Below are positions 23,363-38,855 of a stretch of DNA of 64,000 nt, piece after piece. Each line of letters begins with the position of its first letter. Position 1 is the first letter of the stretch. Source of the DNA: Bacillota bacterium (GTDB lineage: Bacteria; Bacillota; Bacilli; Paenibacillales; UBA4045); the NCBI GenBank assembly GCA_023441055.1, contig JAEZQY010000001.1, positions 81,032 to 145,031 of the forward strand. The letters are read 5' to 3'. The translations under genes and the position numbers were made by a program. A model generated the notes under the pieces. That model was not told where the DNA came from, searched no databases, and saw nothing but the letters and a program-made list of their open reading frames with translations.

Positions 23363-23610
23363 TAATATAACGCTCCTCTCGTATTCCACATCCTCAGTCC
23401 AAGGACATTGTATAATAGAATGATAGATATGGTAAATGGTGTTAAAATGTAACGTTATGTATCATCTTGTCGATCCATGTGTAAATGCGTCCCTTACCGC
23501 TCGATTTGTAAAGAAATTGCGTATTCGCTATCATGAATACCAACGAACATAGGAGCGTTGTAAGCAATCAAGCTAGTCATTTCTGAGTGGAGGTGGATGA
23601 TGTGAGCAAT

Positions 23611-24453
23611 ATGAACAACAACTGGCGATTTATAAATTCAGGGCCGTGCTCGCCTGCGGAGAACATGGCGATAGACGAAGCGATTTTGACCAGTCACAGC
23701 AAGGGGCTAGTGCCTCCAACTGTACGATTCTACGGCTGGAGTCCAGCGACGCTGACGATTGGTTATTTTCAGAAGGCGGATGAAGAGGTGAATTTCGAGC
23801 GGCTGCATGCCCGCGGACTCGGCTTCGTGCGGCGTCCAACAGGCGGCAGAGCCGTGCTGCATGATGCAGAGCTGACATACAGCATCATCGTGTCAGAGGA
23901 TTATCCGGGTATTCCGAGTACCGTGAATGAAGCTTATCGGGTGCTGAGTGAGGGGCTGGTGCATGGGTTTCGCAGACTCGGCTTGCAGGCGGAGATGGTC
24001 AATCTGTCGAGCGAGGAGGACAAATCGAAGATGATGACAGGCTCGGCTGCCTGCTTCGATTCGCCTTCCTGGTATGAGCTCGTTGTTGAAGGACGCAAGG
24101 TCGCGGGCTCTGCGCAGGTCAGACAGAAGGGCGTCGTGCTGCAGCATGGCTCGATTCTGCTGGATCTGGATGTTGACCTGTTGTTCGAGGTGCTGCAATT
24201 CCCCAGTGAACGTGTCCGGGAGCGCTTGCGGGCATCCTTCACGGAGAAGGCTGTAGCCATTAATGATGTGAAGCGCAGACTGGGGCACGCGGAAGTGAGC
24301 TTGACAGAGGCTGAGGCGGCATTTCGAAGCGGATTAGCGGAGGGTCTCGGCGTTGAGCTGGAGTCCGGCGATCTGTCCGAATGGGAGCGGGAGCTTGCGC
24401 TGCAGCTCGTTCTGGAGAAGTACGGTCACCGGGATTGGAATTTCCGCAGATGA
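23611..24453 (+). CDS. lipM: Octanoyltransferase LipM (lipoate-protein ligase family)
   Basis: About 280 aa in the LplA/LipM family (WRFINSG...ENMAIDEAIL...RFYGW.PATLTIGYFQ). Synteny with yqhH/yqhG matches Bacillus yqhM=lipM. The start is ambiguous (GTG 23587/23602 or ATG 23611). Confidence 0.75.
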   Translation: MNNNWRFINSGPCSPAENMAIDEAILTSHSKGLVPPTVRFYGWSPATLTIGYFQKADEEVNFERLHARGLGFVRRPTGGRAVLHDAELTYSIIVSEDYPGIPSTVNEAYRVLSEGLVHGFRRLGLQAEMVNLSSEEDKSKMMTGSAACFDSPSWYELVVEGRKVAGSAQVRQKGVVLQHGSILLDLDVDLLFEVLQFPSERVRERLRASFTEKAVAINDVKRRLGHAEVSLTEAEAAFRSGLAEGLGVELESGDLSEWERELALQLVLEKYGHRDWNFRR

Positions 24454-24479
24454 TCCGCGCACATCGCCGCATGGGAAAA

Positions 24480-24521
24480 TGTGATGAAGATCACTAGCGT
24501 TCCTCATCAATCTTCTATAAT
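24480..24521 (+). promoter_or_regulatory. Crp/Fnr-type box plus -10 element upstream of the RIC gene
   Basis: TGTGAtgaagaTCACT (24480-24495) has its centre 28.5 bp upstream of TATAAT (24516-24521). Confidence 0.55.
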
Positions 24522-24573
24522 GAATGTATAAGCAATGAGATTTATTCTCAGTTGAATAGAAGGAGGACGTCAT

Positions 24574-25293
24574 ATGAAGCCCATTAGGATTGAGCAGAAT
24601 CGGCCAATCGGTGAGATTGTAGCTGATTTCCCGACTGCCGCGCTTATCTTCAAGAAGCACCGCATCGATTTCTGCTGCGGTGGTGATCGGCCGCTGTCAG
24701 TCGCGGCAGGCGCGAAGCAGGTCGACGTTCAGACCGTCATCGAGGAGCTGCATGCCGCATACCAGGCTGAGGCTAATCGCAAGGATCGCGGCACGGATTG
24801 GCAATCCGCGGACTACACAGCGTTAGTCGATCATGTGTTAGATACTCATCACGCCTATCTAAAGCGCGAGCTTAGCGGTATCGGCGAGTTCACGAATCGT
24901 ATTCGCAATGTGCATGGTTATCATCATCCTGAATTGCTGCGCCTCGATGAGCTGTTCCGCCAGGTGAAGGCAGAGCTTGAGGAGCATATGCAGAAGGAGG
25001 AAGCGCAAATCTTCCCGCTTGTGAAGCAATATGCGGCTGCAGGAGACAGAGAACTGCTGGCAGAAGCCGTCAAGACGATTGACGAGCTGGAGGCGGAGCA
25101 TAGCGCAGTAGGCGAACTGCTGGAGGAGATGCGCGAGATTACCGCGGACTATACGCTGCCACCGGAGGCTTGCCGGAGCTATACGGTCACATTCGAGAAG
25201 CTGGAGGAGCTGGAGGATGATATGTTCCAGCATATCCATCTTGAGAATAATATCATGTTCCCTAGACTGGAGAAGGAGCTGAGTGCCTTATGA
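24574..25293 (+). CDS. scdA: Iron-sulfur cluster repair di-iron protein (RIC / ScdA / YtfE family)
   Basis: N-terminal ScdA_N signature (HRIDFCCGGDRPL) plus a hemerythrin-like His/Glu-rich C-domain. AGGAGG RBS. Confidence 0.85.
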   Translation: MKPIRIEQNRPIGEIVADFPTAALIFKKHRIDFCCGGDRPLSVAAGAKQVDVQTVIEELHAAYQAEANRKDRGTDWQSADYTALVDHVLDTHHAYLKRELSGIGEFTNRIRNVHGYHHPELLRLDELFRQVKAELEEHMQKEEAQIFPLVKQYAAAGDRELLAEAVKTIDELEAEHSAVGELLEEMREITADYTLPPEACRSYTVTFEKLEELEDDMFQHIHLENNIMFPRLEKELSAL

Positions 25294-25577
25294 TGAAACT
25301 GCCCATGCTGAAGGAGAAGGATTGGTCGCTGAATCTGGAGGATGAAGCCTTCGTCGACAATCCGCAGGAGCTGATCGAAGAGGCAGTTAAGGCGGTGGAG
25401 ATCACCGCTGCCGGCCATTACGTGAATCTGGTGACGCCTGCTGGAACCGGTCACCCGGAGCAGGGGCTGCTCGGCGAAATCAAGCAAGCTATCGATCGCG
25501 CAGGTGTCGCTTATCAACAGATTGTTTACGTGGACGAATGCGGATGCGGCGGCTTCGTCACCAGAGTATATCGATAA
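25290..25577 (+). CDS. Small conserved protein with a C-terminal CGCGG motif
   Basis: 95 aa ending ...YVDECGCGGFVTRVYR. Its ATG overlaps the RIC stop (ATGA, 25290-25293), which implies translational coupling. Confidence 0.6.
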   Translation: MMKLPMLKEKDWSLNLEDEAFVDNPQELIEEAVKAVEITAAGHYVNLVTPAGTGHPEQGLLGEIKQAIDRAGVAYQQIVYVDECGCGGFVTRVYR

Positions 25578-25595
25578 TTTGCATTAGCTTTTGAG

Positions 25596-25706
25596 GTAGT
25601 TTTGTTGCGATGATTACTCAGGGGGTATAGCTTCACAAAACTAAGCGTATGCTTCCGAAGTAGTTTTGTTGCGATGATTACTCAAGAGGTATAGCTTCAC
25701 AAAACT
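25596..25706 (+). repeat. Two copies of a 47-nt hairpin-capable element (64-bp period)
   Basis: GTAGTTTTGTTGCGATGATTACTCA[G/A]G[G/A]GGTATAGCTTCACAAAACT occurs at 25596-25642 and 25660-25706. Each copy has AGTTTTGT...ACAAAACT inverted ends. No T-run follows either copy. Confidence 0.85.
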
Positions 25707-25723
25707 TGGAGGAGGAACTAATC

Positions 25724-26065
25724 ATGGAAATCAAATCCTTAGGTCCATTGCGAGAGTTCGGCGAGGAACGCTTCACGAAGAGAATTATTCACAAGAAGGA
25801 TGAAAGTGTCGTATTCGTGTTAAACTTCGAGCCGGGACAGGAGCTGCCTACGCATAACCACCCGGGGACGGCTGTCTACATTCTGGTATTATCCGGCTCA
25901 GGCGAGGTGGTGATTGACGGGACGCCGTCCGCAATTACGGAAGATGATGTGGTATGGGTCGATGGAGCAGAGCAGTTCGCGTTCAAGAATACCGGCAGCG
26001 AGCGCGTTACGCTCTATGTCATGCTGGCGAAGATTCCGGATGAGCGATTCGCGCAGAATATCTAA
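25724..26065 (+). CDS. Cupin-domain protein
   Basis: Cupin motif (PTHNHPGTAVYILVLSGSGEVVIDG). GGAGGAGG RBS precedes the ATG at 25724. Confidence 0.75.
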   Translation: MEIKSLGPLREFGEERFTKRIIHKKDESVVFVLNFEPGQELPTHNHPGTAVYILVLSGSGEVVIDGTPSAITEDDVVWVDGAEQFAFKNTGSERVTLYVMLAKIPDERFAQNI

Positions 26066-26083
26066 TGAATGGAGGCTGGCGCG

Positions 26084-27349
26084 ATGACGGCGTCCAAGGC
26101 ACCCACTAATTTATACATTCTGCGATTAAGTTTCATACACTTCGCGACCGGCATCCTGCTATTACTGACAGCGATGCTGGCCGCTATCTGGCTAATTCCG
26201 GATATCGCGCAACTGGGCACATTCCGAGTGACAGAAGGGTGGCTGCTGGCCCATCTGCTGCTGCTCGGCTTCGCCTCCATGACAGCGATCGGCGCGAGCT
26301 ATCAGCTAGTGCAAGTCATCATGCGCACCGCACTGTTCAGCCGGCCGCTCGGATACGTCCAGTATGTCTGCTATACAGTCGGTCTGCTGCTCATCCTGCT
26401 CGGTTTCGGCTGGCGAATCCAGTTCGTGGCGCCGGGCGGCACGCTTGTCATTATCGGCATTATACTATACTGCGTTAATATGGGTATGACCTTGCTGCGC
26501 AAGCGCGAGTGGAACCCCTTCGTGCTGGGGATTGCGCTCAGTGCGGCCGCCTTCCTAGCGGCAGGTGTCATGGGCACGCTGCTGGGGCTGTATCTGGCGG
26601 GGAATCTGCCGTCTGCGCTGTCTGCGCTGGAGTACGATGTACTCTTCGGCAGCCATCTGTGGCTAGGGATCGGCGGCTGGCTGTCCGGTCTGATCGTGGT
26701 GTTCAGCTTCAAGCTGCTGCCCATGTTCTATGTGTCACCCAAGAAGGTGACCAGACAAGTGTATGCGATTATAGGCGGCTTCCACACAGGCATTGGGCTG
26801 CAGGTGGTGTCACTGTGGCTTAGACAAGATACGCTTACGCTGGCAGCTTATCTGATCATTGGCGGTTCAGCGGTCTGGTTCACGATCTACTTGTTCCGGG
26901 TACGTGCACTCAGCCGCGCGAAGTCGCCAGTCGGTGCTGTGCGGACAGCCTTCTGGCTTATCCCATTACATACCGCGCTGTTCCTGCTATGGGGCGCGAT
27001 GATCCAGCTTCATATAGCAGAGGACCTACTCCATGAGAGCGTTCTGGCGTTCATAACACTAGGGTGGTTCATCCCTTCAATCTTAGCCTATCTGTCCAAA
27101 ATACTGCCATTCCTCTGGTGGGCGCATCGGTTCCGTACCGGGGCGCAGAAGAAGGCAGCTGTGCTGCTCTCTGAGATGCTGCCAGAGCGTCGGCTGACGC
27201 TGGAGCTGACTGGATACATAATAGGCGCTGCCTTACTGTCAATTGGCTTCTACTACGGTTCTGCCGCAATTGTGGTATTAGGGCAGGTGCTTATGACGGG
27301 CTTCCTGCTGGTCTATCTGTGTGAGCTGACCCGCACCTTCCGATACTGA
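26084..27349 (+). CDS. 12-TM His-bearing integral membrane protein, paralogue 1 (NnrS-like / haem-copper-oxidase-subunit-I-like; family not verified)
   Basis: About 12 hydrophobic helices. Blocks are shared with the protein at 36541-37773 (GW..AHLL.LG.A.M...GA.YQL; H.WLG..GW......FSFK.LPMFY.S; .LAYLSKI.PFLWW.H.). GGAGG lies 8 nt before the ATG at 26084, which is 18 nt past the cupin stop at 26063-26065. Confidence 0.6.
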   Translation: MTASKAPTNLYILRLSFIHFATGILLLLTAMLAAIWLIPDIAQLGTFRVTEGWLLAHLLLLGFASMTAIGASYQLVQVIMRTALFSRPLGYVQYVCYTVGLLLILLGFGWRIQFVAPGGTLVIIGIILYCVNMGMTLLRKREWNPFVLGIALSAAAFLAAGVMGTLLGLYLAGNLPSALSALEYDVLFGSHLWLGIGGWLSGLIVVFSFKLLPMFYVSPKKVTRQVYAIIGGFHTGIGLQVVSLWLRQDTLTLAAYLIIGGSAVWFTIYLFRVRALSRAKSPVGAVRTAFWLIPLHTALFLLWGAMIQLHIAEDLLHESVLAFITLGWFIPSILAYLSKILPFLWWAHRFRTGAQKKAAVLLSEMLPERRLTLELTGYIIGAALLSIGFYYGSAAIVVLGQVLMTGFLLVYLCELTRTFRY

Positions 27350-27454
27350 TGTAGCTGATAATGGAAATCTTAAGAAGCACGCTATATCTAGGGTGCGTTG
27401 GGTTATAATGGTATAGTGGGATCATAAAGCTGAATCGATAGGGGTGTCTAGTCG

Positions 27455-29137
27455 ATGGACGATCAGGATTTGCGAATACGCAGTCATGTGATTAGCGAGG
27501 GAACCGGCCGCGCGCCGAATCGAGCCATGCTAAGGGCGGTCGGGTTTACGGATGCAGACTTCCAGAAGCCGATGATTGGCATAGCCAGCACCTGGAGTGA
27601 AGTGACGCCATGCAATATGCATATCGATCAGCTCGCCGTGCATGCCAAGCAAGGAGCTAAAGATAATGGCGGAGCGCCGCTAACCTTCGGTACGATTACG
27701 GTATCAGACGGGATTGCGATGGGGCATGTCGGGATGCGCTACTCGCTCCCGAGTCGGGAGGTAATCGCCGATTCGATCGAGACCGTTGTAAGCGCAGAGC
27801 GATTGGATGGTCTAGTAGCGATTGGCGGCTGCGACAAGAATATGCCAGGCTGTCTAATCGCTATGGGGAGGCTGAACGTCCCTGCTGTATTCGTGTACGG
27901 CGGTACGATTGCGCCGGGTGATCTACACGGACAGGATATCGATATTGTCTCCGCCTTCGAGGCAGTTGGACAATTCAATCAGGGCAGTATCAATTCAGAG
28001 CAATTGTATGACGTCGAGTGCCATGCTTGTCCGGGAGCTGGCTCCTGCGGGGGTATGTATACGGCGAATACGATGGCTTCCGCTATCGAGGCAATGGGAA
28101 TGAGCTTGCCGGGCAGCTCATCGAATCCGGCGGAGACGTCGCTCAAGCAAGAGGATTGCTTCAAGGCCGGACAGGCGGTAGTCGATCTGCTACGCAAGGG
28201 AATCTATCCGCGGGATATCATGACTAGGCTGGCGTTCGAGAATGCGATCACTGTGGTGATGGCGCTGGGCGGGTCGACGAATGCCATCCTGCATCTGCTC
28301 GCCATGGCTCATGCGGTTGATGTTGATCTGACGCTGGACGACTTCGAGACAATCCGCGCTCGTGTGCCGATGCTGGCGGATATGAAGCCGAGCGGCCGCT
28401 ATGTCATGCAGGATCTATATGAGGCAGGCGGTGTCCCGGCTGTTATGAAGCTGCTGCTGGATGAGGGGCTGCTTCATGGTCACTGTATAACTGTTACTGG
28501 CAGGACCGTCGCCGAGAATCTGGCTGATCTTCCCGGATTGGTCGATGGTCAGGAGGTCATCCGACCGATGTCCAATCCGGTGAAGGCATCAGGCCATCTG
28601 GTCGTGCTGAAGGGGAATCTGGCACCGGAGGGCTCCGTTGCCAAGACATCAGGCCTCAAGTCAACGCGATTCATTGGGCCGGCGAGCGTGTTCGATTCCG
28701 AGGAGGAAGCAACCACTGCGCTGCTGGAGGATCGGATTCAGCCAGGTGATGTGATCGTCATCCGCTATGCCGGACCGAAGGGTGGACCAGGTATGTCCGA
28801 GATGCTAGCGATTACAGCGATTGTAATCGGCAAGGGCTTGAACGAGCAGGTTGCGCTGTTAACAGATGGACGCTTCTCAGGTGGGACGCACGGCTTCGTA
28901 GTCGGGCATATTGCCCCTGAAGCTCAAGTCTGTGGACCGATCGCGCTCATCCAGGACGGCGATATCATTACCATCGACAGCGAGACGCGAGAACTCAGCG
29001 TTGACGTATCGGAGGCTGAGCTCGCAGAGCGACGCCAGACCTGGGTCGAACCGCCACTCCGCTATAATCGAGGTGTGCTGTACAAGTACGCGCAGCTCGT
29101 CTCCTCGGCCTCTAAAGGCGCGGTTACTGATTTGTAA
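27455..29137 (+). CDS. ilvD: Dihydroxy-acid dehydratase
   Basis: 560 aa with typical IlvD blocks ([37 protein letters not shown]). Confidence 0.95.
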
Positions 29138-29387
29138 CCGGATTAGATTGTAGAAGCACGATACATGATTCACAGATAATCGCCCGTAGGCTATCCAGGA
29201 TTGGATAAGCAACGGGCGATTCGCCTGTCCAGAGTCGGATAAGCAGCGCGGGCGATTGGCAGAAGAAATTAAAGTATAAGGCACTTAAACTAACGGGCAG
29301 TTATTTGAAACTCACACTCTCACAATAAAGGATAATTATAGAAAAAATGTAGAACTCTCCAGATAACAACTAAAACGGAGGTGTGTA

Positions 29388-30440
29388 ATGTCAGATAATA
29401 TGGGGATTAACATTAATAAAGTACAATTGGATAACTATGTATTTAGCGGTATTGATGCCTCTTTAGTCGGTGCGATTAAATCAGTTGCTGATTATTATCA
29501 ATTTCCATTGACAACATCATGGATATATGGAATGTCAGGGCTTGCTTTCTTGCACGTACTTGATGAAAACTTAATGGAACCCAATGGAGGACCATCTGAA
29601 CCAGAGGTTTTTAATCTTGTACGTAATATTGGTTTAGAAATAGATGGTCTGCATGTTTATGCAGAAGGTGAAGACTTTTCTAACCTGCAAGCTGTAGCAT
29701 GGGAGAAGGCACAACTAGCCATTACCTCAAAGCAACCAGTTTTCGCAAAAAATATTGATATCGGGAGCCAAACATCAGTTATTTATGCTTATGATGAAGT
29801 CGGTTATTATACACGAACATGGCATACTGGATATGAGAACAGTGAAGACGTCATTCCTTGGAACTTACTAGGCTTAAGTCAATGTCCTTGTATCAACTGC
29901 GAAAATTATCGGAATTCAATCAACCAAACGGTTAACTTAGAAAGTGGTTTGATTTCTTTACACTGGGCTAATCCAATCCAACCAGTAGATGAATTGACTG
30001 CTTTTAAAGAAACACTTGAATTTGTTATACGTTTAAACGAAGAAGGAAGCTATGTGTGGGCGGGAAAAACTTATTTGGTGGGTTCGAAAGCTTATGAAAA
30101 ATGGTTAACTGCTTTGGAAAGTGATAGTGTGGATAAATACTTTTTTAGCCTATTCGTCGAGATTTTATATGAAGCAAGAAGCCATGCAATTAAATTTCTG
30201 TCGGAAATAAAAGGGAGGAACTTTGGGATAAGTGAACAATTGATTGATGCCAGTATAAATAAATATAGTGATGTTTCTGCTGAATATAAAATTTTGAGAG
30301 ACATGTATCCATATCAAGAACCACGTGATAGCGAAATAAAGCAAAAAGAACAGTGTATTGCTATCGTAGCGAAGTTGCATCAATTAGAGATGGACTGTTT
30401 AAAATTCATAAAAAAAATCCACAAAAGCATATCACAATAG
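29388..30440 (+). CDS. Hypothetical protein encoded on an AT-rich island (possibly BtrH_N/DUF4872-like; unverified)
   Basis: 350-aa ORF with a GGAGGTG RBS. The DNA is conspicuously AT-rich compared with the flanking genes. I recognise no catalytic motif with confidence. Confidence 0.55.
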   Translation: MSDNMGININKVQLDNYVFSGIDASLVGAIKSVADYYQFPLTTSWIYGMSGLAFLHVLDENLMEPNGGPSEPEVFNLVRNIGLEIDGLHVYAEGEDFSNLQAVAWEKAQLAITSKQPVFAKNIDIGSQTSVIYAYDEVGYYTRTWHTGYENSEDVIPWNLLGLSQCPCINCENYRNSINQTVNLESGLISLHWANPIQPVDELTAFKETLEFVIRLNEEGSYVWAGKTYLVGSKAYEKWLTALESDSVDKYFFSLFVEILYEARSHAIKFLSEIKGRNFGISEQLIDASINKYSDVSAEYKILRDMYPYQEPRDSEIKQKEQCIAIVAKLHQLEMDCLKFIKKIHKSISQ

Positions 30441-30484
30441 CTGAATGGACTAACGGGATACGATACCTCAATGGCATCAGGCTT

Positions 30485-30790
30485 TTGATAGAATGGCTGG
30501 AGCGGATGAATCGGGCGATAGACTATATTGAAGCGAATCTGACCGAGGAGATCGAATTGAACGAGGCGGCCCGCATGGCCTGCTGCTCGTCTTACCAGTT
30601 CCAACGGATGTTTTCGTTTATTACGGACGTGACGTTGGCAGAGTACATTCGGCGGAGACGGTTGACGCTTGCTGCGTTGGAATTGCAACACAGCGGGGCG
30701 GCGAAGGTGATCGTGTGGCGGAGATTTGCCATCGTTCGTCAGCGGGGATTTGCATCTCGTTCATGCGGCATGCAGCTACCGGAAGACTAG
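30485..30790 (+). pseudogene. Truncated AraC/MarA-type regulator remnant
   Basis: The first HTH is intact (..EWLERMNRAIDYIEANLTEEIELNEAARMACCSSYQFQRMFSFITDVTLAEYIRRRRL). After ...LQHSGAAKVI the sequence degenerates and stops. The second HTH and any effector domain are missing. Confidence 0.55.
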
Positions 30791-30988
30791 ACCGGACATG
30801 TTTCCGTACATGCTTTGTGCCTTCAAAGACAATGCCAGAAATACGGACGGGTACACCTCTGGTTCGCGGTTAGTAAGGCTGCCACGTTAAACTATACGGC
30901 AGCCTTCGTTGAATAAACGGGAAACGATAGTAACAATTGCGTTATTACATACGCCAGATGGGATTCATAAGCAGATGCTCCTCGCCGA

Positions 30989-31225
30989 TCAGGCAAGCTT
31001 GCTGATCTGTACTTGAAAGGTGATGGGACCTTGCTCCACATACTCCCAGCTGTATCCGCCCGGATACATGGATTGGAACTGGAAGTGCAGCGGCTTCGGG
31101 TCGTGGTCGTTAATCAGCAGCATCGCCTCACTCGGATTCAGCTTGGCGAAGGTTTCGAAGATGACTTTATGTTTTAGATGGGGCGGGTATTCGGTAGCGT
31201 TCACTGTTGCAGCATATTGACTCAT
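30989..31225 (-). CDS. DUF2249-domain protein (single domain)
   Basis: 78 aa from MSQYAATV. The pattern ...PPHLKHKVIFETFAKLNPSEAMLLINDHDPKPLHFQF...WEY.EQGP..F.V.I is the DUF2249 pattern as I recall it. AAGGAGGAG RBS. Confidence 0.65.
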   Translation of the reverse strand: MSQYAATVNATEYPPHLKHKVIFETFAKLNPSEAMLLINDHDPKPLHFQFQSMYPGGYSWEYVEQGPITFQVQISKLA

Positions 31226-31264
31226 TAGAAACTCCTCCTTGAATGGATGATGATTGTCATCTTG

Positions 31265-31307
31265 AGTGTAGCAATATGCGCTCAGCACCTGTGTGATGCG
31301 AATCACA
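31265..31307 (-). promoter_or_regulatory. Crp/Fnr-type box plus -10 element upstream of the DUF2249 gene
   Basis: A perfect TGTGAtgcgaaTCACA (31292-31307) has its centre 29.5 bp upstream of TACACT (minus strand, 31270-31265). Confidence 0.55.
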
Positions 31308-31397
31308 TTGTATCATGTCGCACACAATAGACTTAACCTCATCAAGTATTAGGGAATTTCCAGCGGCTAGTTTATAATGAATGGAGGAGGTGCAGCG

Positions 31398-32387
31398 ATG
31401 AAATTTATCGATAATCAAGGGATAACCGATCCACGCATCAATCTTGCGATCGAAGAATATGCGCTCAGACATCTGGATCAGGAGGACGATTACCTCTTGT
31501 TCTATGTGAATGAGCCCTCGATTATTATCGGCAAGAATCAGAATACCGTCGAGGAAATTAATCAGGCCTACGTGGAGGAGCACAGCATTCATGTTGTTCG
31601 AAGATTATCGGGTGGAGGCGCCGTCTATCATGATCTGGGCAATCTGAATTTCAGCTTCATTACCAAGGATGACGGACAGTCCTTCCATAATTATAGAAAG
31701 TTCACGGAACCAGTAGTGGAGGCACTGCATAAACTCGGCGTACAAGCGGAGCTTACCGGACGCAACGATATACAGGTAGGAGAGCGTAAAATTTCCGGCA
31801 ATGCGCAATTCGCGACCAAGGGACGGATGTATTCGCATGGCACGTTAATGCTCCAGACGGACCTGGAGGAGGTGACACGCGCTCTCAAGGCGAATAGGGC
31901 GAAAATTGAATCCAAAGGGATTAAGTCGATTCGCAGCCGAGTGGCGAACATCTCTGAGTTTCTGCGTGAACCAATTACCATGGAACAATTTAAGGATCAT
32001 CTATTAGCTTCTATATTCGGTGGCGGCCAGCGTGAGCAATATGTGCTGCAGGAGGACGATTGGCGCAGAATCGAAGAGATCTCAGCTGCTCGCTATCGGA
32101 CCTGGGAATGGAACTTCGGCAAATCACCTGCCTATAATGTGACAATCTCACGCCGGTTCGAAGGGGTAGGCACGCTCGACATCCGGCTGCAGGTGGAGGG
32201 AGGAATGATCGAATTCGTGAGAATCTTCGGTGATTTCTTCGGAACAGCGGATGTGCAAGAACTGGAGGAGCGGCTGGTGGGTGTGCCTTACAGCCGCGCT
32301 GAGATTGAGGAAGCCTTGGGCAAGCTGGATTTGAAGCCTTATTTTGGCAGGTTGGAGAGCGGGTTGTTCTTCGAGTTGTTCACATAG
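31398..32387 (+). CDS. lplJ: Lipoate--protein ligase
   Basis: MKFIDNQGITDPRINLAIEEYAL...RRLSGGGAVYHDLGNLNFSF is typical of the LplA/LplJ family, and a C-terminal accessory domain is present. GGAGGAGG RBS. Confidence 0.9.
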   Translation: MKFIDNQGITDPRINLAIEEYALRHLDQEDDYLLFYVNEPSIIIGKNQNTVEEINQAYVEEHSIHVVRRLSGGGAVYHDLGNLNFSFITKDDGQSFHNYRKFTEPVVEALHKLGVQAELTGRNDIQVGERKISGNAQFATKGRMYSHGTLMLQTDLEEVTRALKANRAKIESKGIKSIRSRVANISEFLREPITMEQFKDHLLASIFGGGQREQYVLQEDDWRRIEEISAARYRTWEWNFGKSPAYNVTISRRFEGVGTLDIRLQVEGGMIEFVRIFGDFFGTADVQELEERLVGVPYSRAEIEEALGKLDLKPYFGRLESGLFFELFT

Positions 32388-32406
32388 GAGCCCGTATAAC
32401 AGGTTA

Positions 32407-33585
32407 TTATTCGGGCTTTGTCTCTCTTCCAAGCACGAGTAGGGTTACAGCGCCAATGAGCAGCACGATTGTGAACAGGCTGAATATAACAGAATAGGTA
32501 TAGGTCTGGGCGAGCAACCATCCGACGAGCAATGGCGCGATCATGCTGCCGACTCTCCCGACCGCTGAGGCAAGACCTGCGCCAGAGGCCCGTACTGCTG
32601 TTGGGTAATTCTCTGGTGTATAGGCATACAGCGCGCCCCATGCACCGAGATTGAAGAAGGAGAGCATGGCGCCGGATAGAAGCATCACAGTGACGGTTGC
32701 GCTGCTGCCGAAGATGAACGCCGCGATGGCTGTCATCGCCATGAATAGGACGAGCGTAGGCTTGCGGCCGATGCGCTCCACCAGATAGGCAGCCGCGAAG
32801 TAGCCGGGTACCTGGGCAAGCGTCATGATGAGGACATATTCGAAGCTCTGGATTATGCTGTAGCCTTTATCCACGAGTACAGAGGGCAGCCACAGGAACA
32901 TGCCATAATAGGAGAAGGTGATGGCGAACCAGACGGTCCACAGGACGATGGTCTGCTGCTTGTACTGGGTGAAGAGCTGGCTCAGCGGGATGCGAGTTGC
33001 GCGTTTCGTGAACTTGGGAGATTCCGGAATGCGCTTGCGGATGAGCAGCGCATAGACGAGCGGCAGGGAGCCGATAATGACGGCGACGCGCCAGCCGAAG
33101 TCTGGAATGACATAATAAGCGATAATCGCCGCTAAGAGCCAGCCTACCGCCCAGAAGCTCTCGAGCAGGACGACGATACGTCCCCGCTTGTGTGCAGGCG
33201 AGAACTCATTGACCAGCGTTGAGGCGACTGGCAGCTCCGCGCCAAGCCCCAGACCCATGATGAAGCGCAGGACCAGCATGACGGCGAGCCCGGTTGCAGC
33301 TGCGCTGGCTAGACTAGCCATGCCGAAGATGATCAGCGTTGCGAGGAAAATCGGCTTGCGGCCGATGCGATCCGCCATATAGCCGCCGATCGACGCGCCC
33401 AGCGCCATGCCTGCCAGATTAACCGTTCCGAGCAGTCCGGTCTGTGTCGTAGTCAGCCCCCATTCGGAAGCTAGCGAGACGACGATGAAGGACAGAAGAC
33501 CAACATCCATCGCGTCGAACATCCAACCGAAACCCGCGGACCAGAATACTCGTCTCTGCACTCGATCTGACGCTTCTATCATCAT
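32407..33585 (-). CDS. MFS transporter
   Basis: 392 aa, 12 helices, with the MFS motif GGYMADRIGRKP and a second-half repeat LVERIGRKP. Confidence 0.8.
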   Translation of the reverse strand: MMIEASDRVQRRVFWSAGFGWMFDAMDVGLLSFIVVSLASEWGLTTTQTGLLGTVNLAGMALGASIGGYMADRIGRKPIFLATLIIFGMASLASAAATGLAVMLVLRFIMGLGLGAELPVASTLVNEFSPAHKRGRIVVLLESFWAVGWLLAAIIAYYVIPDFGWRVAVIIGSLPLVYALLIRKRIPESPKFTKRATRIPLSQLFTQYKQQTIVLWTVWFAITFSYYGMFLWLPSVLVDKGYSIIQSFEYVLIMTLAQVPGYFAAAYLVERIGRKPTLVLFMAMTAIAAFIFGSSATVTVMLLSGAMLSFFNLGAWGALYAYTPENYPTAVRASGAGLASAVGRVGSMIAPLLVGWLLAQTYTYSVIFSLFTIVLLIGAVTLLVLGRETKPE

Positions 33586-33655
33586 ATAATCCCCCTCATT
33601 GGACTAGTTATAGTATCCCACAGACCCGTATGGATTTACACACCTATTCAGACTG

Positions 33656-33684
33656 AAAAGCGACTCCCCAGTCGGAGAGTCGCT
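33656..33684 (-). terminator. Terminator after nirK
   Basis: AGCGACTC / GAGTCGCT stem followed by TTTT on the minus strand. Confidence 0.6.
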
Positions 33685-33699
33685 ATTCCCAGTCACTTA

Positions 33700-34689
33700 T
33701 CAGTGACTCATCGGCTTGGCACCATTGTCCTTGCCATCTTCGGTCACTCTTAGTATCGCCACCGCACCCTTGCTCGCATGGTTGAACTGATGGGTCACAA
33801 TGGCGTAGTCGCCAGCTTCTGTGACAGTGAATTCAACTACCGCGCCGCCGCTTGCTGGCAGCATGACCGTCTGCATTCCCTTCAGCACATTAGCGGGATT
33901 ACCATCCAGGTAGACGTTGTCCATGATCGTGCCCACGACGTGAAGGGAGCTTACTTCATTCGGGCCTACGTTGTTCACATAGAGGCGAACCTTGTCGCCG
34001 ACCTTAGCCAGCAGGGGCTTCTCCTTAAGGCCGAAGTCATTGCCGTTGAATACGACGTAGGAGGGTACACCGTTCAGGAAGTCACTGTAATCCTTCTCCT
34101 TATACCATTCGCTCTGTACGATTACATATTCCTGATCGATCTCAGCGTCAGTAGGATAGCCTTCAGTTGGCTCTACGATAATTACACCATACATCCCGTT
34201 CGCGATATGGGCCAGTACTGGTGCGGTTCCACAGTGGTACATGAATACGCCTGGCATATTGGCGGGATAAGTGAAGGTGCCTTCTTCTTCGGGCATGATA
34301 TCGATGAATTTCTCACTCGGCGATGCATGCACCGCATGGAAGTCCATGGAGTGGGGAACATCGGGATCGAGATTCTTCAGTGTGAAGTTAATGATATCGC
34401 CTTGCTTAACACGCAGTACAGGCCCCGGCACAGTGCCGTTGAATGTCCAGGCGTTATAGAATACGCCCTTGGAGATCTCCACATCAGTTACCTGCGCGGT
34501 CATCTCAATATTGACAATGTTGCCGTTACGCTCGACAATCGGTTCGATGGGCGGCTGGTTGATCTTCGCAGGGGCTGCAGCTTCTGCTGCTGGCGGATTA
34601 GACACAGGTGCTGCTTTGTTAGATCCACACCCGGTTAAAATCAATGCGATGGCGGACAGTAAGATGGCAGTTTTCTTTATGGCTAGCAT
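33700..34689 (-). CDS. nirK: Copper-containing nitrite reductase (NirK), lipoprotein form
   Basis: Lipobox LTGCGS. Type-2/type-1 Cu ligand blocks are present (PHSMDFHAVH; MYHCGTAPVLAHIANGMYG). It has a two-cupredoxin length of about 330 aa. ATG 34689 follows AAAGGTGA. Confidence 0.85.
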   Translation of the reverse strand: MLAIKKTAILLSAIALILTGCGSNKAAPVSNPPAAEAAAPAKINQPPIEPIVERNGNIVNIEMTAQVTDVEISKGVFYNAWTFNGTVPGPVLRVKQGDIINFTLKNLDPDVPHSMDFHAVHASPSEKFIDIMPEEEGTFTYPANMPGVFMYHCGTAPVLAHIANGMYGVIIVEPTEGYPTDAEIDQEYVIVQSEWYKEKDYSDFLNGVPSYVVFNGNDFGLKEKPLLAKVGDKVRLYVNNVGPNEVSSLHVVGTIMDNVYLDGNPANVLKGMQTVMLPASGGAVVEFTVTEAGDYAIVTHQFNHASKGAVAILRVTEDGKDNGAKPMSH

Positions 34690-34798
34690 GAGAATCACCT
34701 TTCCTTCTTATAATTGTGATTTCCTTCTCAACCAGCCGGAAAAAGTTTTGCCTGTCTGTTCGAGCTATCATCCGCTATCGGCTGGTTCTTATGATTCA

Positions 34799-34841
34799 AG
34801 CTTACGTTTTTAAGGAGAAACCAAATGTGATTGAGAACACA
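34799..34841 (-). promoter_or_regulatory. Crp/Fnr-type box plus -10 element upstream of nirK
   Basis: TGTGAttgagaACACA (34826-34841, 9/10 match) has its centre 29.5 bp upstream of TAAGCT (minus strand, 34804-34799). Confidence 0.45.
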
Positions 34842-34876
34842 TCTCAATTAGCTGTCGTTATGTCGCCACAATTGCA

Positions 34877-34918
34877 ATAAAAAATCAGGTAATGTGATGA
34901 TAATCACACTGCCTGATT
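34877..34918 (-). terminator. Terminator of the crp-GNAT unit (its stem contains a perfect TGTGAT-N4-ATCACA palindrome)
   Basis: Minus strand reads AATCAGGcagTGTGATtatcATCACAttaCCTGATTTTTTATT, a long hairpin plus a T-run. Confidence 0.7.
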
Positions 34919-34958
34919 GTAAATATACTTACAGTTATAGGTTATAGAGAGAGCAAGC

Positions 34959-35390
34959 TTATCTCCCAATCGTCTTCTCCATCACGACATGTGGCATATC
35001 CGCTTCCAGGAAGAGATCCGACGTCGTCTGATAGCCCAACTGGGTATAGAAGGACTCCGCGTGTGTCTGGGCATGCAGCTTCAGCTGCGTCATATTGTGC
35101 TGGATCGCGTATTGTTCCATGGCTTCCATTAAGTGTCTCCCGTATCCTCTTCTGCGATGCGGGGCTAAGATACAGAACCGCTCGACCTTGACGAATGGAT
35201 AGATGCTGCGTAATCGGCCTGTTCCGATTGGCAGCTCTCCATCGTAGAGGATGAAGTGGATGGACTCGGCTTCATGCTCATCTACTTCGAGTTCCATTGG
35301 AACCTGTTGCTCCTCCACGAACACTTGCATACGGATGTGAAATGCTGACTTCAGTTGTTCCTCTGTTGATGCAACCTCGATCTTCAGCAT
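34959..35390 (-). CDS. GNAT-family N-acetyltransferase
   Basis: Pattern ILAPHRRRGYGRHLMEAM. Start taken at MLKIEV, which follows GAAAGG. A GTG start at 35426 overlapping the crp stop is the alternative. Confidence 0.65.
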   Translation of the reverse strand: MLKIEVASTEEQLKSAFHIRMQVFVEEQQVPMELEVDEHEAESIHFILYDGELPIGTGRLRSIYPFVKVERFCILAPHRRRGYGRHLMEAMEQYAIQHNMTQLKLHAQTHAESFYTQLGYQTTSDLFLEADMPHVVMEKTIGR

Positions 35391-35422
35391 GTGATCGTCG
35401 ACCTTTCTATTCCATGTCCAAC

Positions 35423-36109
35423 TCACTTCACCAATAGCTCCTTCAGTCGATCAATGTCATATATCACATAACCAGTGCGGTCGGTTTCCAGGATACCATC
35501 CTTGCGCAGCTGGTTGATCAGTCGATTAACCGTCTCGCGAGTTGTGCCGATCGTGCTGGCGAACTCCTGGTTAGTCATTGGAACATTGATATGGATCGCG
35601 CCGTCTCTGGATGTACCGTACTTCTCCGCTAGGGTCAGGAGGAAGGAGAGGCCGCGGTCCTGCACGTCATTACCTGTCAACTCCTGCAGCTTGCGCTGCA
35701 GCTCTTCGATCTTCGTACTGAGTCCTCGCATCACCTTGATTGATATTTCGGGAATACGAATCAGAAGCTGCTCGAATGAACGAATGGGAATAGCCAGCAG
35801 CTTGGTATCGACGATGGCCTCTGTTGTTGCAGGGTAGGGATGTTGATTGAACAATCCCGTATGCGGGAACATCTCGCCGGATTTCAGGAAGGAGACAATA
35901 TGCTCATTGCCATTCTCATCAGTCTTGAATGCCTTGACCAGACCGTCCTGTATGAAGTATACCGCTTCCTTATCATCGCCTTCGATGAAGATAATCGTCC
36001 GCTTGCGGTAAGAACGTTGAATGGTAATGGTGTGGATCTGCTCCAATTCTTCATCGGTAAGGTCACGGAACAATGGAACCTTGCGTAGAATCTCCAATTC
36101 ATGCTTCAT
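35423..36109 (-). CDS. Crp/Fnr-family transcriptional regulator (cysteine-free)
   Basis: cNMP-binding-type beta-roll (LRKVPLFRDLTDEEL...) plus a C-terminal HTH with recognition helix TRETVNRLINQL. The 228-aa translation contains no Cys. Confidence 0.85.
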   Translation of the reverse strand: MKHELEILRKVPLFRDLTDEELEQIHTITIQRSYRKRTIIFIEGDDKEAVYFIQDGLVKAFKTDENGNEHIVSFLKSGEMFPHTGLFNQHPYPATTEAIVDTKLLAIPIRSFEQLLIRIPEISIKVMRGLSTKIEELQRKLQELTGNDVQDRGLSFLLTLAEKYGTSRDGAIHINVPMTNQEFASTIGTTRETVNRLINQLRKDGILETDRTGYVIYDIDRLKELLVK

Positions 36110-36156
36110 CCTCTGCGAATTCCCCTTTCATCACATAACGGGAAAAATGATAAAGA

Positions 36157-36189
36157 CCCCTTCAATAAAGTATAACCTTTTTTGAAGGG
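36157..36189 (-). terminator. Terminator after the DUF59 gene
   Basis: CCCCTTCAA / TTGAAGGGG stem. On the minus strand it is followed by a T-rich tract. Confidence 0.65.
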
Positions 36190-36204
36190 GGTTGGAATCC
36201 ATTT

Positions 36205-36513
36205 CTAGAAAAACGATAGCTGCTCCTTAGCCGCATCAGACATCTTCTCAGGTGTCCATGGCGGGCTCCAGACGACGTTCACATGCACAGCGTTTACCGC
36301 TGGCAGTCCCAGCAAGGCTCGCTCCACGCCGCCAGCTATTGTATCATGCATCGGGCAGCCTGGCGTAGTCAGTGTCATCGTGACGGTAACAATGCCGTCG
36401 TTATCTTGTTCGATGGCATAGATAAGTCCCAGATCAACAATATTCACGCCAAGCTCGGGGTCATAGACCAATCGCAGCTGGTCCATAATCAATTCCTGAT
36501 CAGTTAACATCAT
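36205..36513 (-). CDS. DUF59 / SufT-like metal-sulfur cluster assembly factor
   Basis: VYDPELGVNIVDLGLIY...TLTTPGCPMHD is the DUF59 signature. ATG 36513 follows GAGAGGAGTGG. Confidence 0.8.
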   Translation of the reverse strand: MMLTDQELIMDQLRLVYDPELGVNIVDLGLIYAIEQDNDGIVTVTMTLTTPGCPMHDTIAGGVERALLGLPAVNAVHVNVVWSPPWTPEKMSDAAKEQLSFF

Positions 36514-36540
36514 TTCCACTCCTCTCAGAATCGTAATAGA

Positions 36541-37773
36541 TCAACGTAAGAATACATTCGCGATCAATCCCATATAGCCGATCGAACTGATCGACAGCAG
36601 GCAGCCGCCGATCGTGATAAGCGGCATAACCGATGTGCCGATCCCGATCACGAGCAGCGCGAGGCTCGCTGCGATCAGGCTCAGCCCGATCCGTACATAC
36701 CGGTCATTGATCAGGTCAGACATCGTGGGAATCTTCTTCTTCCCGACCTGCGGGCCGTACTTATGCGTCCACCATAGGAAGGGCACGATCTTGGACAGAT
36801 AGGCCAGCATCGTGATGCCCAGAAACCCCCATAGGTAAATCCAGCCCAGCATCGTGCTGATGCGCACCTGCAGCACCTGGTCTGGCACAGCAGCAGCGGC
36901 GATCAGCACAATCAGGCTCACCAGTAGCAGCATTCGCGCCGACCAGATGGACCAGCGTATGCCCTCGCCCGGATTAGGCTTATGCTTGGCTCGTCGAATT
37001 TGCCGAATGTGATAGCTGTATAGGGCGAGTGCGGTGACAAGGAGGAGCAGGGCGAACCACTTCGCTAGATCATGCCAGTCCAGCAGGAAAGCGACGGCGC
37101 CGAGCGCGGCTGATGCATGCCAGAGATGTACGATATACTTCTGCAAGGTTTCGGAATGGCCGTGCGATAGATAGAACATCGGCAGCATCTTGAAGCTGAA
37201 GCCGATGATCAGCAGCCCAAACCAGCCGATCATACCTAGCCAGATATGCGCGTGGAAGATCTGCTCATGCATGAAGCTCCACCAGCCGAACGCGAAGTTC
37301 ATGCCCATTGCCATTCCGCTGAGACCTGTGAAGAAGAGGTAGACTACAGCGAGTCCCGCGCTGACCGTGATGGGTGTCCACTTACCGGCACGTACCAGAG
37401 TGGCAAACAGATTGATCGCGAATAGAATAATTCCGATATAAGCGACGGTGGCCGAGATGCCGATCAGCATGAAATTTGCTTGGTAGAAGCCGACCAGCAA
37501 GCCTGCAGAGCCAATGGTGAACACGCCATAATTAGTGAAGCCCAGCTTCTCACTGAAGATATTGGATTGCAGCACCACATTGATCAACTGATACACAGCA
37601 CCCATTGCAATCATCGTAGCCCAGCCGAGCACGAGCAGATGCGCGCTGAACCAGCCTTGGGGGCTGCGCGGATGCTCACCGATCCAGCCTGCCGCGTCAG
37701 CAAGATTGAAGCCCTGAAACAGGAAGAAGCAGACCATGCCAGTTATAATGAATGAGAAGGGGAGTCGGAACAT
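36541..37773 (-). CDS. 12-TM His-bearing integral membrane protein, paralogue 2
   Basis: 410 aa, alignable by eye over its whole length with 26084-27349 (same conserved His-containing blocks). AGGAGG RBS. Confidence 0.6.
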   Translation of the reverse strand: MFRLPFSFIITGMVCFFLFQGFNLADAAGWIGEHPRSPQGWFSAHLLVLGWATMIAMGAVYQLINVVLQSNIFSEKLGFTNYGVFTIGSAGLLVGFYQANFMLIGISATVAYIGIILFAINLFATLVRAGKWTPITVSAGLAVVYLFFTGLSGMAMGMNFAFGWWSFMHEQIFHAHIWLGMIGWFGLLIIGFSFKMLPMFYLSHGHSETLQKYIVHLWHASAALGAVAFLLDWHDLAKWFALLLLVTALALYSYHIRQIRRAKHKPNPGEGIRWSIWSARMLLLVSLIVLIAAAAVPDQVLQVRISTMLGWIYLWGFLGITMLAYLSKIVPFLWWTHKYGPQVGKKKIPTMSDLINDRYVRIGLSLIAASLALLVIGIGTSVMPLITIGGCLLSISSIGYMGLIANVFLR

Positions 37774-37790
37774 GGCGTGATCCTCCTAAC

Positions 37791-38342
37791 TTAAGATTTC
37801 GTTATCGTTACAATGGCAGACCCATCTTCTTGATTATCAACGCTATAGGTGTAATTGAGCGCATGGAGTTCTTCAATCAGGAACATGGGCACGCGATCAT
37901 TGTGAATAACCACCTGATCGCCAGCTGAGGCGCTGCTCAGCTTGGCTAATGTACGCACCATCGGCTGTGGCGGCTCCAGACCGCGATTGTCGAGCATGAA
38001 TACACGAGGCTCCGCGGCGGAATCACCCTGAGCTTCAGCAGACGCGTCACCCAGCTCATCATCCGCAGGCGCATCAGAGTGAGTAGCCTGATCACCAGTC
38101 AGCAGATGCTTCATACTCTTATGAACGAAGGTCGTGATCCAGTGCTCATCACCGACCTTCTCCACCTTGTTGTGGAAGCCCTTGGTCTTCATTAGACCGA
38201 GCAGAGGAGTCGGCTTGAACGTGGCATGCAGGACGAATAAGTCGTCCTTCTCCAGCTTCTTCACCGCATCCATAATTAGCTGGAATGGCTCCAGCTTCTT
38301 CTTCAATTGCTCTCTAACATCGAGCTCGATAGTCCGCGTCAT
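37791..38342 (-). CDS. Protein with two DUF2249-like domains joined by an acidic linker
   Basis: Domain 1 runs IELDVRE...LFVLHATFKPTPLLGLM...HWITTF. Domain 2 runs MLDNRGLEPPQPMVRTL...VVIHNDRVPMFLIEEL...GSAIVTITK. The start overlaps the upstream stop (ATGA). Confidence 0.6.
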   Translation of the reverse strand: MTRTIELDVREQLKKKLEPFQLIMDAVKKLEKDDLFVLHATFKPTPLLGLMKTKGFHNKVEKVGDEHWITTFVHKSMKHLLTGDQATHSDAPADDELGDASAEAQGDSAAEPRVFMLDNRGLEPPQPMVRTLAKLSSASAGDQVVIHNDRVPMFLIEELHALNYTYSVDNQEDGSAIVTITKS

Positions 38343-38683
38343 ACCGACACCTCCTTGAGCTGCTCTTTGGCTGCTTCGTACAACCCAGCCATACCGCCGT
38401 AGAGCGCATAGAAGAACGAGTCCGGCGCATCAAGCGAGAAGGATAAGTATTGCTTGGGATCGGTTCCCAGCATCTTCTCGAACAGGCTGGCGGAATCGTA
38501 GGCATAGAAGCAGAAGTAGGTGTACTCGAATTCCGGCATCTTATCGCGTATGGTCACGATGTCCTGCGCATATCGCGGGATATTCTGAGCAGCTTCCCGC
38601 ACCATGCTGATTGCATCGTCCAGCGTAACGTGAATCTGGATCGTCTTCTCGTCCACAATATCAATATGAGCCATAGGAAACAT
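38339..38683 (-). CDS. Hypothetical protein (first gene of the operon)
   Basis: 111-114-aa ORF (ATG 38683 or 38674) following AAGGAGTGG. I recognise no motif. Confidence 0.5.
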   Translation of the reverse strand: MFPMAHIDIVDEKTIQIHVTLDDAISMVREAAQNIPRYAQDIVTIRDKMPEFEYTYFCFYAYDSASLFEKMLGTDPKQYLSFSLDAPDSFFYALYGGMAGLYEAAKEQLKEVSV

Positions 38684-38717
38684 CCACTCCTTGTGAGAAT
38701 CATTATCAATAATTCTC

Positions 38718-38759
38718 AGTATAGCGCTCCTTCATATTCAGAACGTGATCCTAATCACA
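38718..38759 (-). promoter_or_regulatory. Crp/Fnr-type box plus -10 element upstream of the 38683 operon
   Basis: CGTGAtcctaaTCACA (38744-38759, 9/10 match) has its centre 28.5 bp upstream of TATACT (minus strand, 38723-38718). Confidence 0.5.
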
Positions 38760-38790
38760 CATGGCGATCATGCTGCACACTGCGCATAGA

Positions 38791-38830: not shown

Positions 38831-38855
38831 TATTCGAAATTCCTATGAGATTCAC

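Follow-up and report, generated by a model that had tools for sequence, protein, structure and literature searches.

What does a membrane protein built like a respiratory oxidase do in a gene set for nitric oxide (NO) stress, when most of the metal ligands of an oxidase are missing from it? The question is raised by a stretch of 64,000 nucleotides (64 kb, hereafter the window) from a Bacillota bacterium of the Paenibacillales (contig JAEZQY010000001.1, positions 81,032 to 145,031), which encodes two such proteins. Copy 1 is located at 26084..27349 on the plus strand and encodes a 421 amino acid (aa) protein, and copy 2 is located at 36541..37773 on the minus strand and encodes a 410 aa protein. 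Both have the fold of the catalytic subunits of haem-copper oxidases (HCOs) and NO reductases (NORs), and both belong to a widespread family that is encoded together with DUF2249 and DUF59 proteins. We propose that this module may give auxiliary protection against NO, with the membrane protein as its single-haem component.

Fold and family of the two membrane proteins

Both copies are present as open reading frames. The start codon of copy 1 is backed by a ribosome-binding site (GGAGG, 8 nt 5' of 26084) and by the identical 421-aa protein called in public assemblies. BLASTP aligned the two proteins over 367 aa with 31% identity and 53% positives (E = 9e-48), and the alignment contains all three blocks from which the initial annotation had concluded that they are diverged paralogues. 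The similarity is far beyond chance and the paralogy is real. The twelve transmembrane (TM) helices that had been read from the sequence are also found in the AlphaFold models of both copies, with a pLDDT of 93.6 for copy 1 and 94.3 for copy 2 and a pTM of 0.92 for each. Foldseek searches of the PDB with these models returned solely the catalytic subunits of cbb3, aa3, bo3 and ba3 oxidases and of cNOR, with query-normalised TM-scores (TMq) of 0.70-0.76. Specifically, the best match of copy 1 was the cbb3 subunit CcoN (8smr_E, E = 2.6e-6, TMq 0.74), and those of copy 2 were cbb3 CcoN, aa3 subunit I and cNOR NorB (TMq 0.73-0.76). Additionally, the three internal four-helix units are homologous to one another (HHalign probability 97.0-97.9%, E = 1e-10 to 1e-13). 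A 12-TM core made of three units with pseudo-threefold symmetry is the hallmark architecture of the HCO superfamily, and both copies, as modelled, have it.

At the level of single sequences the relationship is far less visible. Neither copy matches Pfam or NCBIfam at E<=0.1, COX1 (PF00115) included, and a PDB sequence search with either copy gave nothing at E<=10; nor did any unrelated transporter family produce a confident match. A family profile (A1), built from 32 sequences, reached cbb3 CcoN in the PDB at E = 6e-5 and placed family helix 2 on CcoN helix X, with the local similarity 'H..LGW..MI..G..Y.L.P'. COX1 was matched by 18 of these 32 relatives when scanned singly, weakly and with a best E-value of 6e-12. 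Many relatives carry a weak precomputed COX1 match, and the record names of a few types of them read cbb3 subunit I or 'heme-copper oxidase family protein'. HHalign comparison with qNOR and B-family oxidase profiles, made from neighbouring genes in other genomes, was weak (E = 0.015-0.07) and ambiguous in its unit assignment because of the pseudo-symmetry of the units, and it was used for the register argument below only. Taken with the structural matches, the true relatives of both copies are the HCO/NOR catalytic subunits. The family comprises 1,534 clusters at 50% identity with E<=1e-30 and ranges over Bacillota, Ignavibacteriota/Bacteroidota, Longimicrobiales and Alphaproteobacteria. Copy 2 represents the common subfamily and copy 1 a rarer one with about 43 close relatives.

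The closest of the HCO catalytic subunits is cbb3 CcoN; aa3/ba3 subunit I and the NorB of cNOR and qNOR are also close. The 12-TM fold and the three units are common to these and to the family, as are a His in TM2 and a His in TM6 near the outer face. However, family members are shorter (about 410-425 aa, compared with 450-800 aa), and their operons hold no electron-entry partner, whether subunit II with CuA, NorC or a fused quinol or cytochrome-c-like domain; the partners are DUF2249 proteins, DUF59 and a 114-aa protein instead.

In the work of Pei, Li, Kinch and Grishin of 2014 (Protein Sci 23:1220), two His are reportedly retained in most three-unit HCO homologues, which could accommodate a single haem. 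The kind of protein was already on record, since HCO homologues with two conserved His and a link to denitrification and DUF2249 are credited to Pei et al. (2014) in a later article (PMC11218638). These three-unit proteins ('HCO-homology', or HCOH) reportedly have 12 TM segments, three units, two conserved His and genomic ties to denitrification, NO detoxification and DUF2249, all of which are also found in the family of the window, and both copies fit the description. Searches of the literature on HCOH, and on DUF2249 together with DUF59, gave nothing useful. What the present analysis appears to add is the quantified conservation of the module, the DUF59 and tandem fusions, the exclusion of NnrS and the coexistence with qNOR and norB, and it also appears to add the argument for a third pocket from helix registers, the shared regulon and the Sinorhizobium meliloti orthologue.

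Conserved histidines and a predicted haem

Residue conservation, spacing and charge were counted over 113 family sequences. It had been claimed that three or four intramembrane His are invariant between the two proteins. Four His do align between the copies (H45, H176, H219 and H337 of copy 2 with H57, H191, H234 and H348 of copy 1), but only two of them are conserved family-wide, namely the TM2 His (H45/H57) and the TM6 His (H176/H191), each invariant in 113/113. Concerning the others, H337 of copy 2 is conserved in 73% of the family and H219 is not conserved, while H204 of copy 2 is conserved in 88% and is missing from copy 1. The companion claim, that there are fewer His than in HCO subunit I, stands, as only two of the six ligand positions are kept. 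Unlike the HCO/NOR catalytic subunits, the 113 sequences have no conserved His pair in TM7 (HH) and no HxH in TM10 at the ligand positions. In TM6, copy 2 has 'HIWLGMIGW' and copy 1 has 'HLWLGIGGW', compared with 'HLWVEG' in a neighbouring qNOR and 'HPMVY' in a neighbouring B-family protein, so that neither the cross-linked Tyr of the oxidases nor the FeB-binding Glu in 'HLWVEG' of cNOR and qNOR occurs in either copy.

The position of the two invariant His along their helices points to a cofactor. The second helix of each unit carries the motif ...LGW...G-x-x-[YFS]-[QK]-x-x-P, and H45 lies 13 residues and H176 15 residues before the conserved Gly of this repeat in 113/113. Canonical helix X, as in the B-family sequence GHFHLTAATAVVLTFFG, has its first His at 15 and its second His at 13 residues before the Gly; the first is the ligand of the high-spin haem and the second the ligand of the low-spin haem. 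Oxidase haems each sit between the 13-register His of one unit and the 15-register position of the next. Because the family has a 13-register His on unit 1 and a 15-register His on unit 2, a pairing that in oxidases makes up the bis-His site of the low-spin haem, we infer a single bis-His haem b, which would occupy the corresponding pseudo-symmetric pocket, formed here by units 1 and 2. This pocket is left empty by the canonical HCO enzymes, and the predicted haem would therefore distinguish the family from them. A single haem would also agree with what Pei et al. (2014) reportedly suggested for three-unit HCO homologues.

Single-unit HCO homologues (DUF2871-like, four TM segments) correspond to one evolutionary unit, that is, to each third of the window proteins. 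They differ in having one unit and not three, and their H-A-H pair puts both His registers on a single helix. A protein of this type was observed in seven Ignavibacteria/Bacteroidota loci, where a 151-aa four-TM protein is encoded 3' of DUF59 (for instance at L074:11616-12071), in the operon of the three-unit gene; it has matches to DUF2871 and to COX1 (8.7e-9, in the C-terminal third of the latter) and carries the H-A-H pair.

Charge distribution sets the orientation of the protein. Lys and Arg average 14.3 in the even loops and termini and 2.4 in the odd loops, with the same bias in 113/113, so the positive-inside rule puts both termini in the cytoplasm and the two invariant His within the outer third of the membrane, which is also where oxidases have their haem ligands. 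A cytoplasmic C-terminus is independently required by the C-terminal DUF59 fusions described below. The outer face, where both His are situated, is also the side on which the lipoprotein NirK makes NO.

The module and its regulon

The initial annotation had tied the family to nirK, RIC and DUF2249 genes in this strain, and the tie extends far beyond it. A scan of species-representative genomes gave at least 526 relatives, of which 80 loci were analysed; together with the window they make up the 81 loci in which neighbours were counted within 7 kb of the family gene. A protein of the double-DUF2249 type was found in 70/81 loci, DUF59 in 69/81, a Crp/Fnr regulator in 47/81, a single DUF2249 in 45/81 and NirK in 17/81. 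The 114-aa protein was present in 11/81 at a constant position, and a cupin also in 11/81, accompanying copy-1-type genes in L060 and L083. Overall, about 70 of the 81 loci keep the DUF2249 / HCO-like / DUF59 module, and these represent four phyla. An unbiased clustering of neighbouring genes also yielded a genuine qNOR in 18 loci (NorB cytochrome-c-like domain 2.7e-63 and COX1 9e-53) and a TIGR04053 radical-SAM protein in 15 loci.

Distant members keep the same company. One locus reads RIC, HCO-like, DUF59, a protein joining DUF1858 to two DUF2249 domains, and DUF2249 (L086). A Longimicrobiales locus (L088) reads HCO-like, DUF59, [DUF1858 + 2xDUF2249] and DUF2249, and a Mesorhizobium locus (L087) has nosZDFYL-apbE, HCO-like, 2xDUF2249, DUF1858 and Crp/Fnr. 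On pSymA of S. meliloti 1021, DUF2249, HCO-like, 2xDUF2249 and DUF59 genes are established between nirK/nnrS1 and hemN/norCB. The S. meliloti member (L089:18232-19590; NC_003037.1, 688231-689589, minus strand) is full-length, has no Pfam match and aligns with the family profile at 99.95% HHalign probability (E = 3e-38); it lies 2 kb from the NnrS gene in the same island. A literature search on this operon (SMa1253-1261) found nothing useful, and PMC5596199 likewise offers nothing on its genes in the supplements.

Gene fusions were also found. Four independent proteins carry DUF59 at the C-terminus of the HCO-like part (P0239, P0274, P0306 and P0322). A metagenomic protein of 862 aa (P0191) is a tandem of two complete family modules with both invariant His kept in each, which suggests that the modules may act as dimers. 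By analogy, the two paralogues of the window may form a heterodimer. Copy-1-type genes are rare and stand nearly always beside a copy-2-type operon, typically in divergent orientation and with a cupin and a ferredoxin, and the two gene sets of the window are best seen as one locus since pulled apart.

Apart from the module genes, a B-family oxidase subunit I with the TM6 sequence 'HPMVY' is encoded near the module at L053:3883-6014, in about 20 other Bacillaceae loci and in L084; it is accompanied by a CuA subunit II and, in L084, by SCO1. It was considered as a possible bNOR and rejected, as the Tyr kept at His+4 marks the type that reduces O2 (criterion of PMC11214002). Housekeeping neighbours of the Bacillaceae loci (methyltransferase, M32 peptidase, helicases) were taken as synteny and not as function.

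Profile matches to Pfam and NCBIfam bear out the gene neighbourhoods described earlier for the window, and both copies are indeed embedded in gene sets for nitrogen oxides (N-oxides). Copy 1 ends a plus-strand set that begins with RIC at 24574..25293, a di-iron protein for the repair of iron centres with ScdA_N and hemerythrin domains (TIGR03652, 4e-77, 259 bits, above cut-off). It is followed at 25290..25577 by a small CGCGG-family protein, a putative peptide modified by a radical-SAM enzyme (TIGR03995, 5e-26, above cut-off), the start of which overlaps the RIC stop codon, so that the two are translationally coupled. A cupin (Cupin_2, PF07883, 2.9e-13) at 25724..26065 ends 18 bp 5' of copy 1. 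On the copy-2 side, where the genes from the 114-aa protein to the regulator are on the minus strand, the order is 114-aa protein, double-DUF2249 protein, copy 2, DUF59, Crp/Fnr regulator, GNAT and NirK-like protein. Specifically, the operon starts with the 114-aa protein at 38339..38683, which has no Pfam or NCBIfam match, and the protein with two tandem DUF2249 domains at 37791..38342 (PF10006, 3.7e-27, in two stretches) stands directly 5' of copy 2. Directly 3' of copy 2 is DUF59 at 36205..36519 (FeS_assembly_P / SufT-like; PF01883, 1e-19), which also matches SUF_assoc and SufT of NCBIfam, and then the Crp/Fnr-family regulator at 35423..36109 (cNMP_binding and HTH_Crp_2). A lone, DrpA-like gene with a single DUF2249 domain (PF10006) is located between the copies at 30989..31225 on the minus strand. 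The DUF2249 protein gave a weak TusA-like match; a PDB search found no entry for DUF2249, and for DUF59 it found just structural-genomics entries that are uncharacterised.

The copper nitrite reductase at 33700..34698 on the minus strand matches the NirK model TIGR02376 with 1.3e-58 and 199 bits, which is below the 296-bit cut-off. Its N-terminus carries the lipoprotein signal LILTGC, and it looks like a divergent, membrane-anchored Gram-positive type of this enzyme.

When up to one mismatch is allowed, the window contains five copies of a DNA box shared by these genes, TGTGAT-N4-ATCACA, against 0.20 expected, and none of 100 shuffles reached five. All five boxes lie in promoter regions: TGTGATGAAGATCACT at 24480..24495, about 86 bp 5' of the RIC start codon; the perfect palindrome TGTGATGCGAATCACA at 31292..31307, about 75 bp 5' of the lone DUF2249 gene; TGTGATTGAGAACACA at 34826..34841 and a second perfect palindrome, TGTGATGATAATCACA, at 34893..34908, both 5' of nirK; and CGTGATCCTAATCACA at 38744..38759, about 68 bp 5' of the first gene of the copy-2 operon. 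An equivalent box was found within 300 bp 5' of the operon in 25 of the 80 other loci, compared with about 1.7 expected from background density. The box thus appears to link both copies, nirK, RIC and the lone DUF2249 gene in one regulon of Crp/Fnr type, and the Crp/Fnr regulator of the copy-2 operon is its probable reader. This regulator has zero Cys and is therefore not an Fnr of the Fe-S type; by analogy, a haem or NO input like that of Dnr/NnrR is plausible. Among related neighbouring Crp/Fnr regulators, nine have zero Cys, eight have one, 15 have two and four have three.

Several further features of the window were recorded. The gap between the CGCGG and cupin genes is filled by a 56-nt tandem direct repeat (25587-25642 and 25651-25706; 91% identical, 64-nt spacing), the unit of which has the inverted ends AGTTTTGT...ACAAAACT and no further copies in the window. 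As RNA, the region folds at -44.7 kcal/mol (z = -4.0); an Rfam scan of 24000-39500 gave nothing at E<=0.1. The pair could be a regulatory or processing element within the RIC-to-copy-1 transcript. The usual partner of CGCGG proteins, a TIGR04053 radical-SAM enzyme, is not encoded in the window; its presence beside the HCO-like module in 15/81 loci hints that the CGCGG/radical-SAM pair belongs to the N-oxide context of the module. A gene for IlvD (dihydroxy-acid dehydratase, an Fe-S enzyme) follows directly 3' of copy 1 at 27455-29137, and a copy-1-type gene in L059 is likewise near an IlvD gene, 82% identical. This IlvD may represent a paralogue, kept in the NO context, of an enzyme that is sensitive to NO. 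Finally, two genes of the LplA family (Pfam; lipoate-protein-ligase-like) are located at 23587-24453, immediately 5' of the RIC set, and at 31377-32387, about 4 kb 3' of copy 1 and divergent from the lone DUF2249 gene.

Proposed role and rival readings

The reading that we favour, with a probability of about 0.5 for the package as a whole, is an auxiliary protection against NO stress tied to the maintenance of iron and Fe-S centres, in which the HCO-like protein would carry one haem and serve the cytoplasmic DUF2249 and DUF59 proteins as their partner in the membrane. During nitrite reduction, the NirK lipoprotein would make NO at the outer face of the membrane. The family protein would form the membrane part of the module, and its haem at the outer face would couple events there to the upkeep of iron and Fe-S centres by DUF59, DUF2249 and RIC. 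DUF1858, the domain joined to DUF2249 in some of the loci, is probably related to the N-terminal (ScdA_N) domain of RIC, which would fit this role. The Fe-S side of the proposal is supported by the DUF59 fusions and by the RIC, ferredoxin and IlvD neighbours, as well as by a haloarchaeal Fe-S carrier fused to DUF2249 (PMC11218638) and by the precedent of NnrS, an auxiliary membrane haem protein of NO protection that is co-regulated with dnrN/RIC (PMC1274295, PMC3345576). The role would thus resemble that of NnrS in proteobacteria, without homology to it; haem binding with its pocket, NO responsiveness and the protective role are each predicted.

Several points weigh against this proposal. From a haem at the outer face, electrons could not pass directly to DUF59 or DUF2249, as the distance to the cytoplasmic surface is too great, and it is solely from sequence registers that the His-His geometry and the 'third pocket' have been derived. 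RIC was found in just 4/81 loci, and the only genetics available for DUF2249, that of Thermus DrpAB, points to regulation and not to repair (PMC6282519). Concerning the regulon, the box is of the general Crp/Fnr type, so that the genes could answer anoxia and not NO, and a search for NnrR boxes on S. meliloti pSymA gave five sites against 3.1 expected, which does not exceed chance, and none of them is 5' of the operon. The Fnr site of Bacillus subtilis, for comparison, is TGTGA-N6-TCACA.

A resemblance to NnrS had been suggested initially, and it goes no further than function and context. NnrS, which contains haem and copper, is likewise a membrane protein of about 400 aa with 12 TM helices and few conserved His, it is found in NO-responsive regulons with dnrN/RIC, nir and nor (PMC1274295), and its part in NO resistance is auxiliary and not primary (PMC3345576), similar to the one proposed here. 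However, PF05940 is matched neither by the window proteins nor by any of the relatives (32/32), and the family profile reached an HHalign probability of only 0.14% against the genuine NnrS of S. meliloti pSymA (PF05940, E = 1.9e-113), whose gene and that of the family member are separate genes of one island. NnrS also has other conserved motifs and is unaccompanied by DUF2249 or DUF59. Membership of the NnrS family is hence refuted at the level of detectable sequence homology and may practically be set aside. It is also very improbable that the copies turn over NO themselves as an unconventional reductase or detoxifier and fill in for a NOR missing beside nirK, even though they have the NorB/HCO fold and are co-regulated with nirK. 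The absence of a NOR, on which that idea drew, does hold for the window, since tblastn with qNOR and B-family subunit I found no true NOR or oxidase in its 64 kb (best E about 1), although 64 kb are too short to show that a NOR is missing from the whole genome. The role of stand-in is weakened by the genuine qNOR alongside the family in 18/81 loci and by the norB of the S. meliloti island, and the family therefore complements NOR and does not replace it. Moreover, all HCO-type families that reduce O2 or NO retain the ligand of the high-spin haem together with three ligands for the second metal (non-haem in NORs), eNOR, bNOR, sNOR, gNOR and nNOR included, with one Asp for His in gNOR (PMC11214002). 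As four of the six canonical metal ligands (TM7 HH, TM10 HxH) are missing, neither copy can be an HCO-type NOR, and reduction of NO to N2O by the HCO mechanism would be beyond the family.

Two further explanations assign the module to signalling or to enzyme assembly. In the former, the main rival, to which we attach some weight though well short of preference, the HCO-like protein would be a sensor or transducer and the membrane partner needed by Drp-type proteins, which have DUF2249 and in some cases DUF1858. Its haem at the outer face would pick up NO, some other N-oxide or a redox signal and act through DUF2249 and DUF59 to modulate the Crp/Fnr (Dnr-like) regulator. The Drp proteins of Thermus thermophilus, DrpA (DUF2249) and DrpB (DUF1858 + 2xDUF2249), have the domain architectures of the module partners and likewise occur in denitrification gene sets; the double-DUF2249 protein of the window resembles DrpB minus its DUF1858 domain. 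They act in a denitrification circuit, deletion of drpAB makes nar and dnr expression independent of nitrate, and DrpB, cytoplasmic yet partly membrane-bound without a TM segment, led its authors to postulate a trans-membrane relay (PMC6282519). Proteins of DrpB architecture share the operon of the HCO-like gene in L086 and L088, a Crp/Fnr gene stands near the family gene in more than half of the loci (47/81), the window regulator without Cys needs another signal input, and the conserved His face the side on which NirK makes NO. On the other hand, NO crosses membranes freely and a trans-membrane sensor is not required, regulators commonly adjoin their targets without physical coupling, the Thermus proteins were studied without an HCO-like membrane partner and no such gene is reported beside drpAB, and Fe-S maintenance accounts better for the DUF59 fusions and for RIC, ferredoxin and IlvD as neighbours. 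The assembly alternative, which we regard as unlikely, makes the module a maturation factor that brings metal or haem to NirK, qNOR and NosZ, with the HCO-like scaffold as membrane chaperone or conduit and with DUF59 and DUF2249 as cytoplasmic carriers. Family genes are indeed found beside qNOR (18 loci), NirK (17 loci) and nosZDFYL-apbE (L087), DUF59 domains occur in proteins that assemble Fe-S and metal cofactors (as in the SUF_assoc and SufT matches), and DUF2249 has its weak TusA-like match. Nevertheless, the adjoining reductase varies between loci and is missing altogether from the 7 kb around many family genes, which speaks against a module devoted to a single enzyme. The partner proteins are cytoplasmic, whereas NirK and NosZ receive their copper centres outside that compartment.

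A bolder form of the proposal, which is rather speculative, joins the protective and the signalling ideas. A bis-His haem in the third HCO pocket, empty in every known oxidase and NOR, would make the family protein the missing membrane partner of the Drp-type DUF2249/DUF1858 proteins, and the module, DUF59 included, would signal outer-face NO to the cytoplasm or buffer it, for control of the Cys-less Dnr-like regulator, for Fe-S protection, or for both.

Whichever role is found, the family represents a large blind spot in N-oxide biology, since it stands almost invariably within gene sets for nitrite, NO and N2O, while no member is known to have been purified or knocked out and the Pfam and NCBIfam libraries fail to recognise it. 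Records that name its members 'cbb3-type cytochrome c oxidase subunit I' can inflate the respiratory or NOR capacity reported in genome-based surveys of denitrification. With the complete module on S. meliloti pSymA, the question can be addressed directly in a genetic model organism. Its role, once found, would clarify the function of the widespread DUF2249 (Drp) and DUF59 partners, the way in which an oxidase scaffold is re-used with a different cofactor site, and how Gram-positive denitrifiers cope with their own NO.

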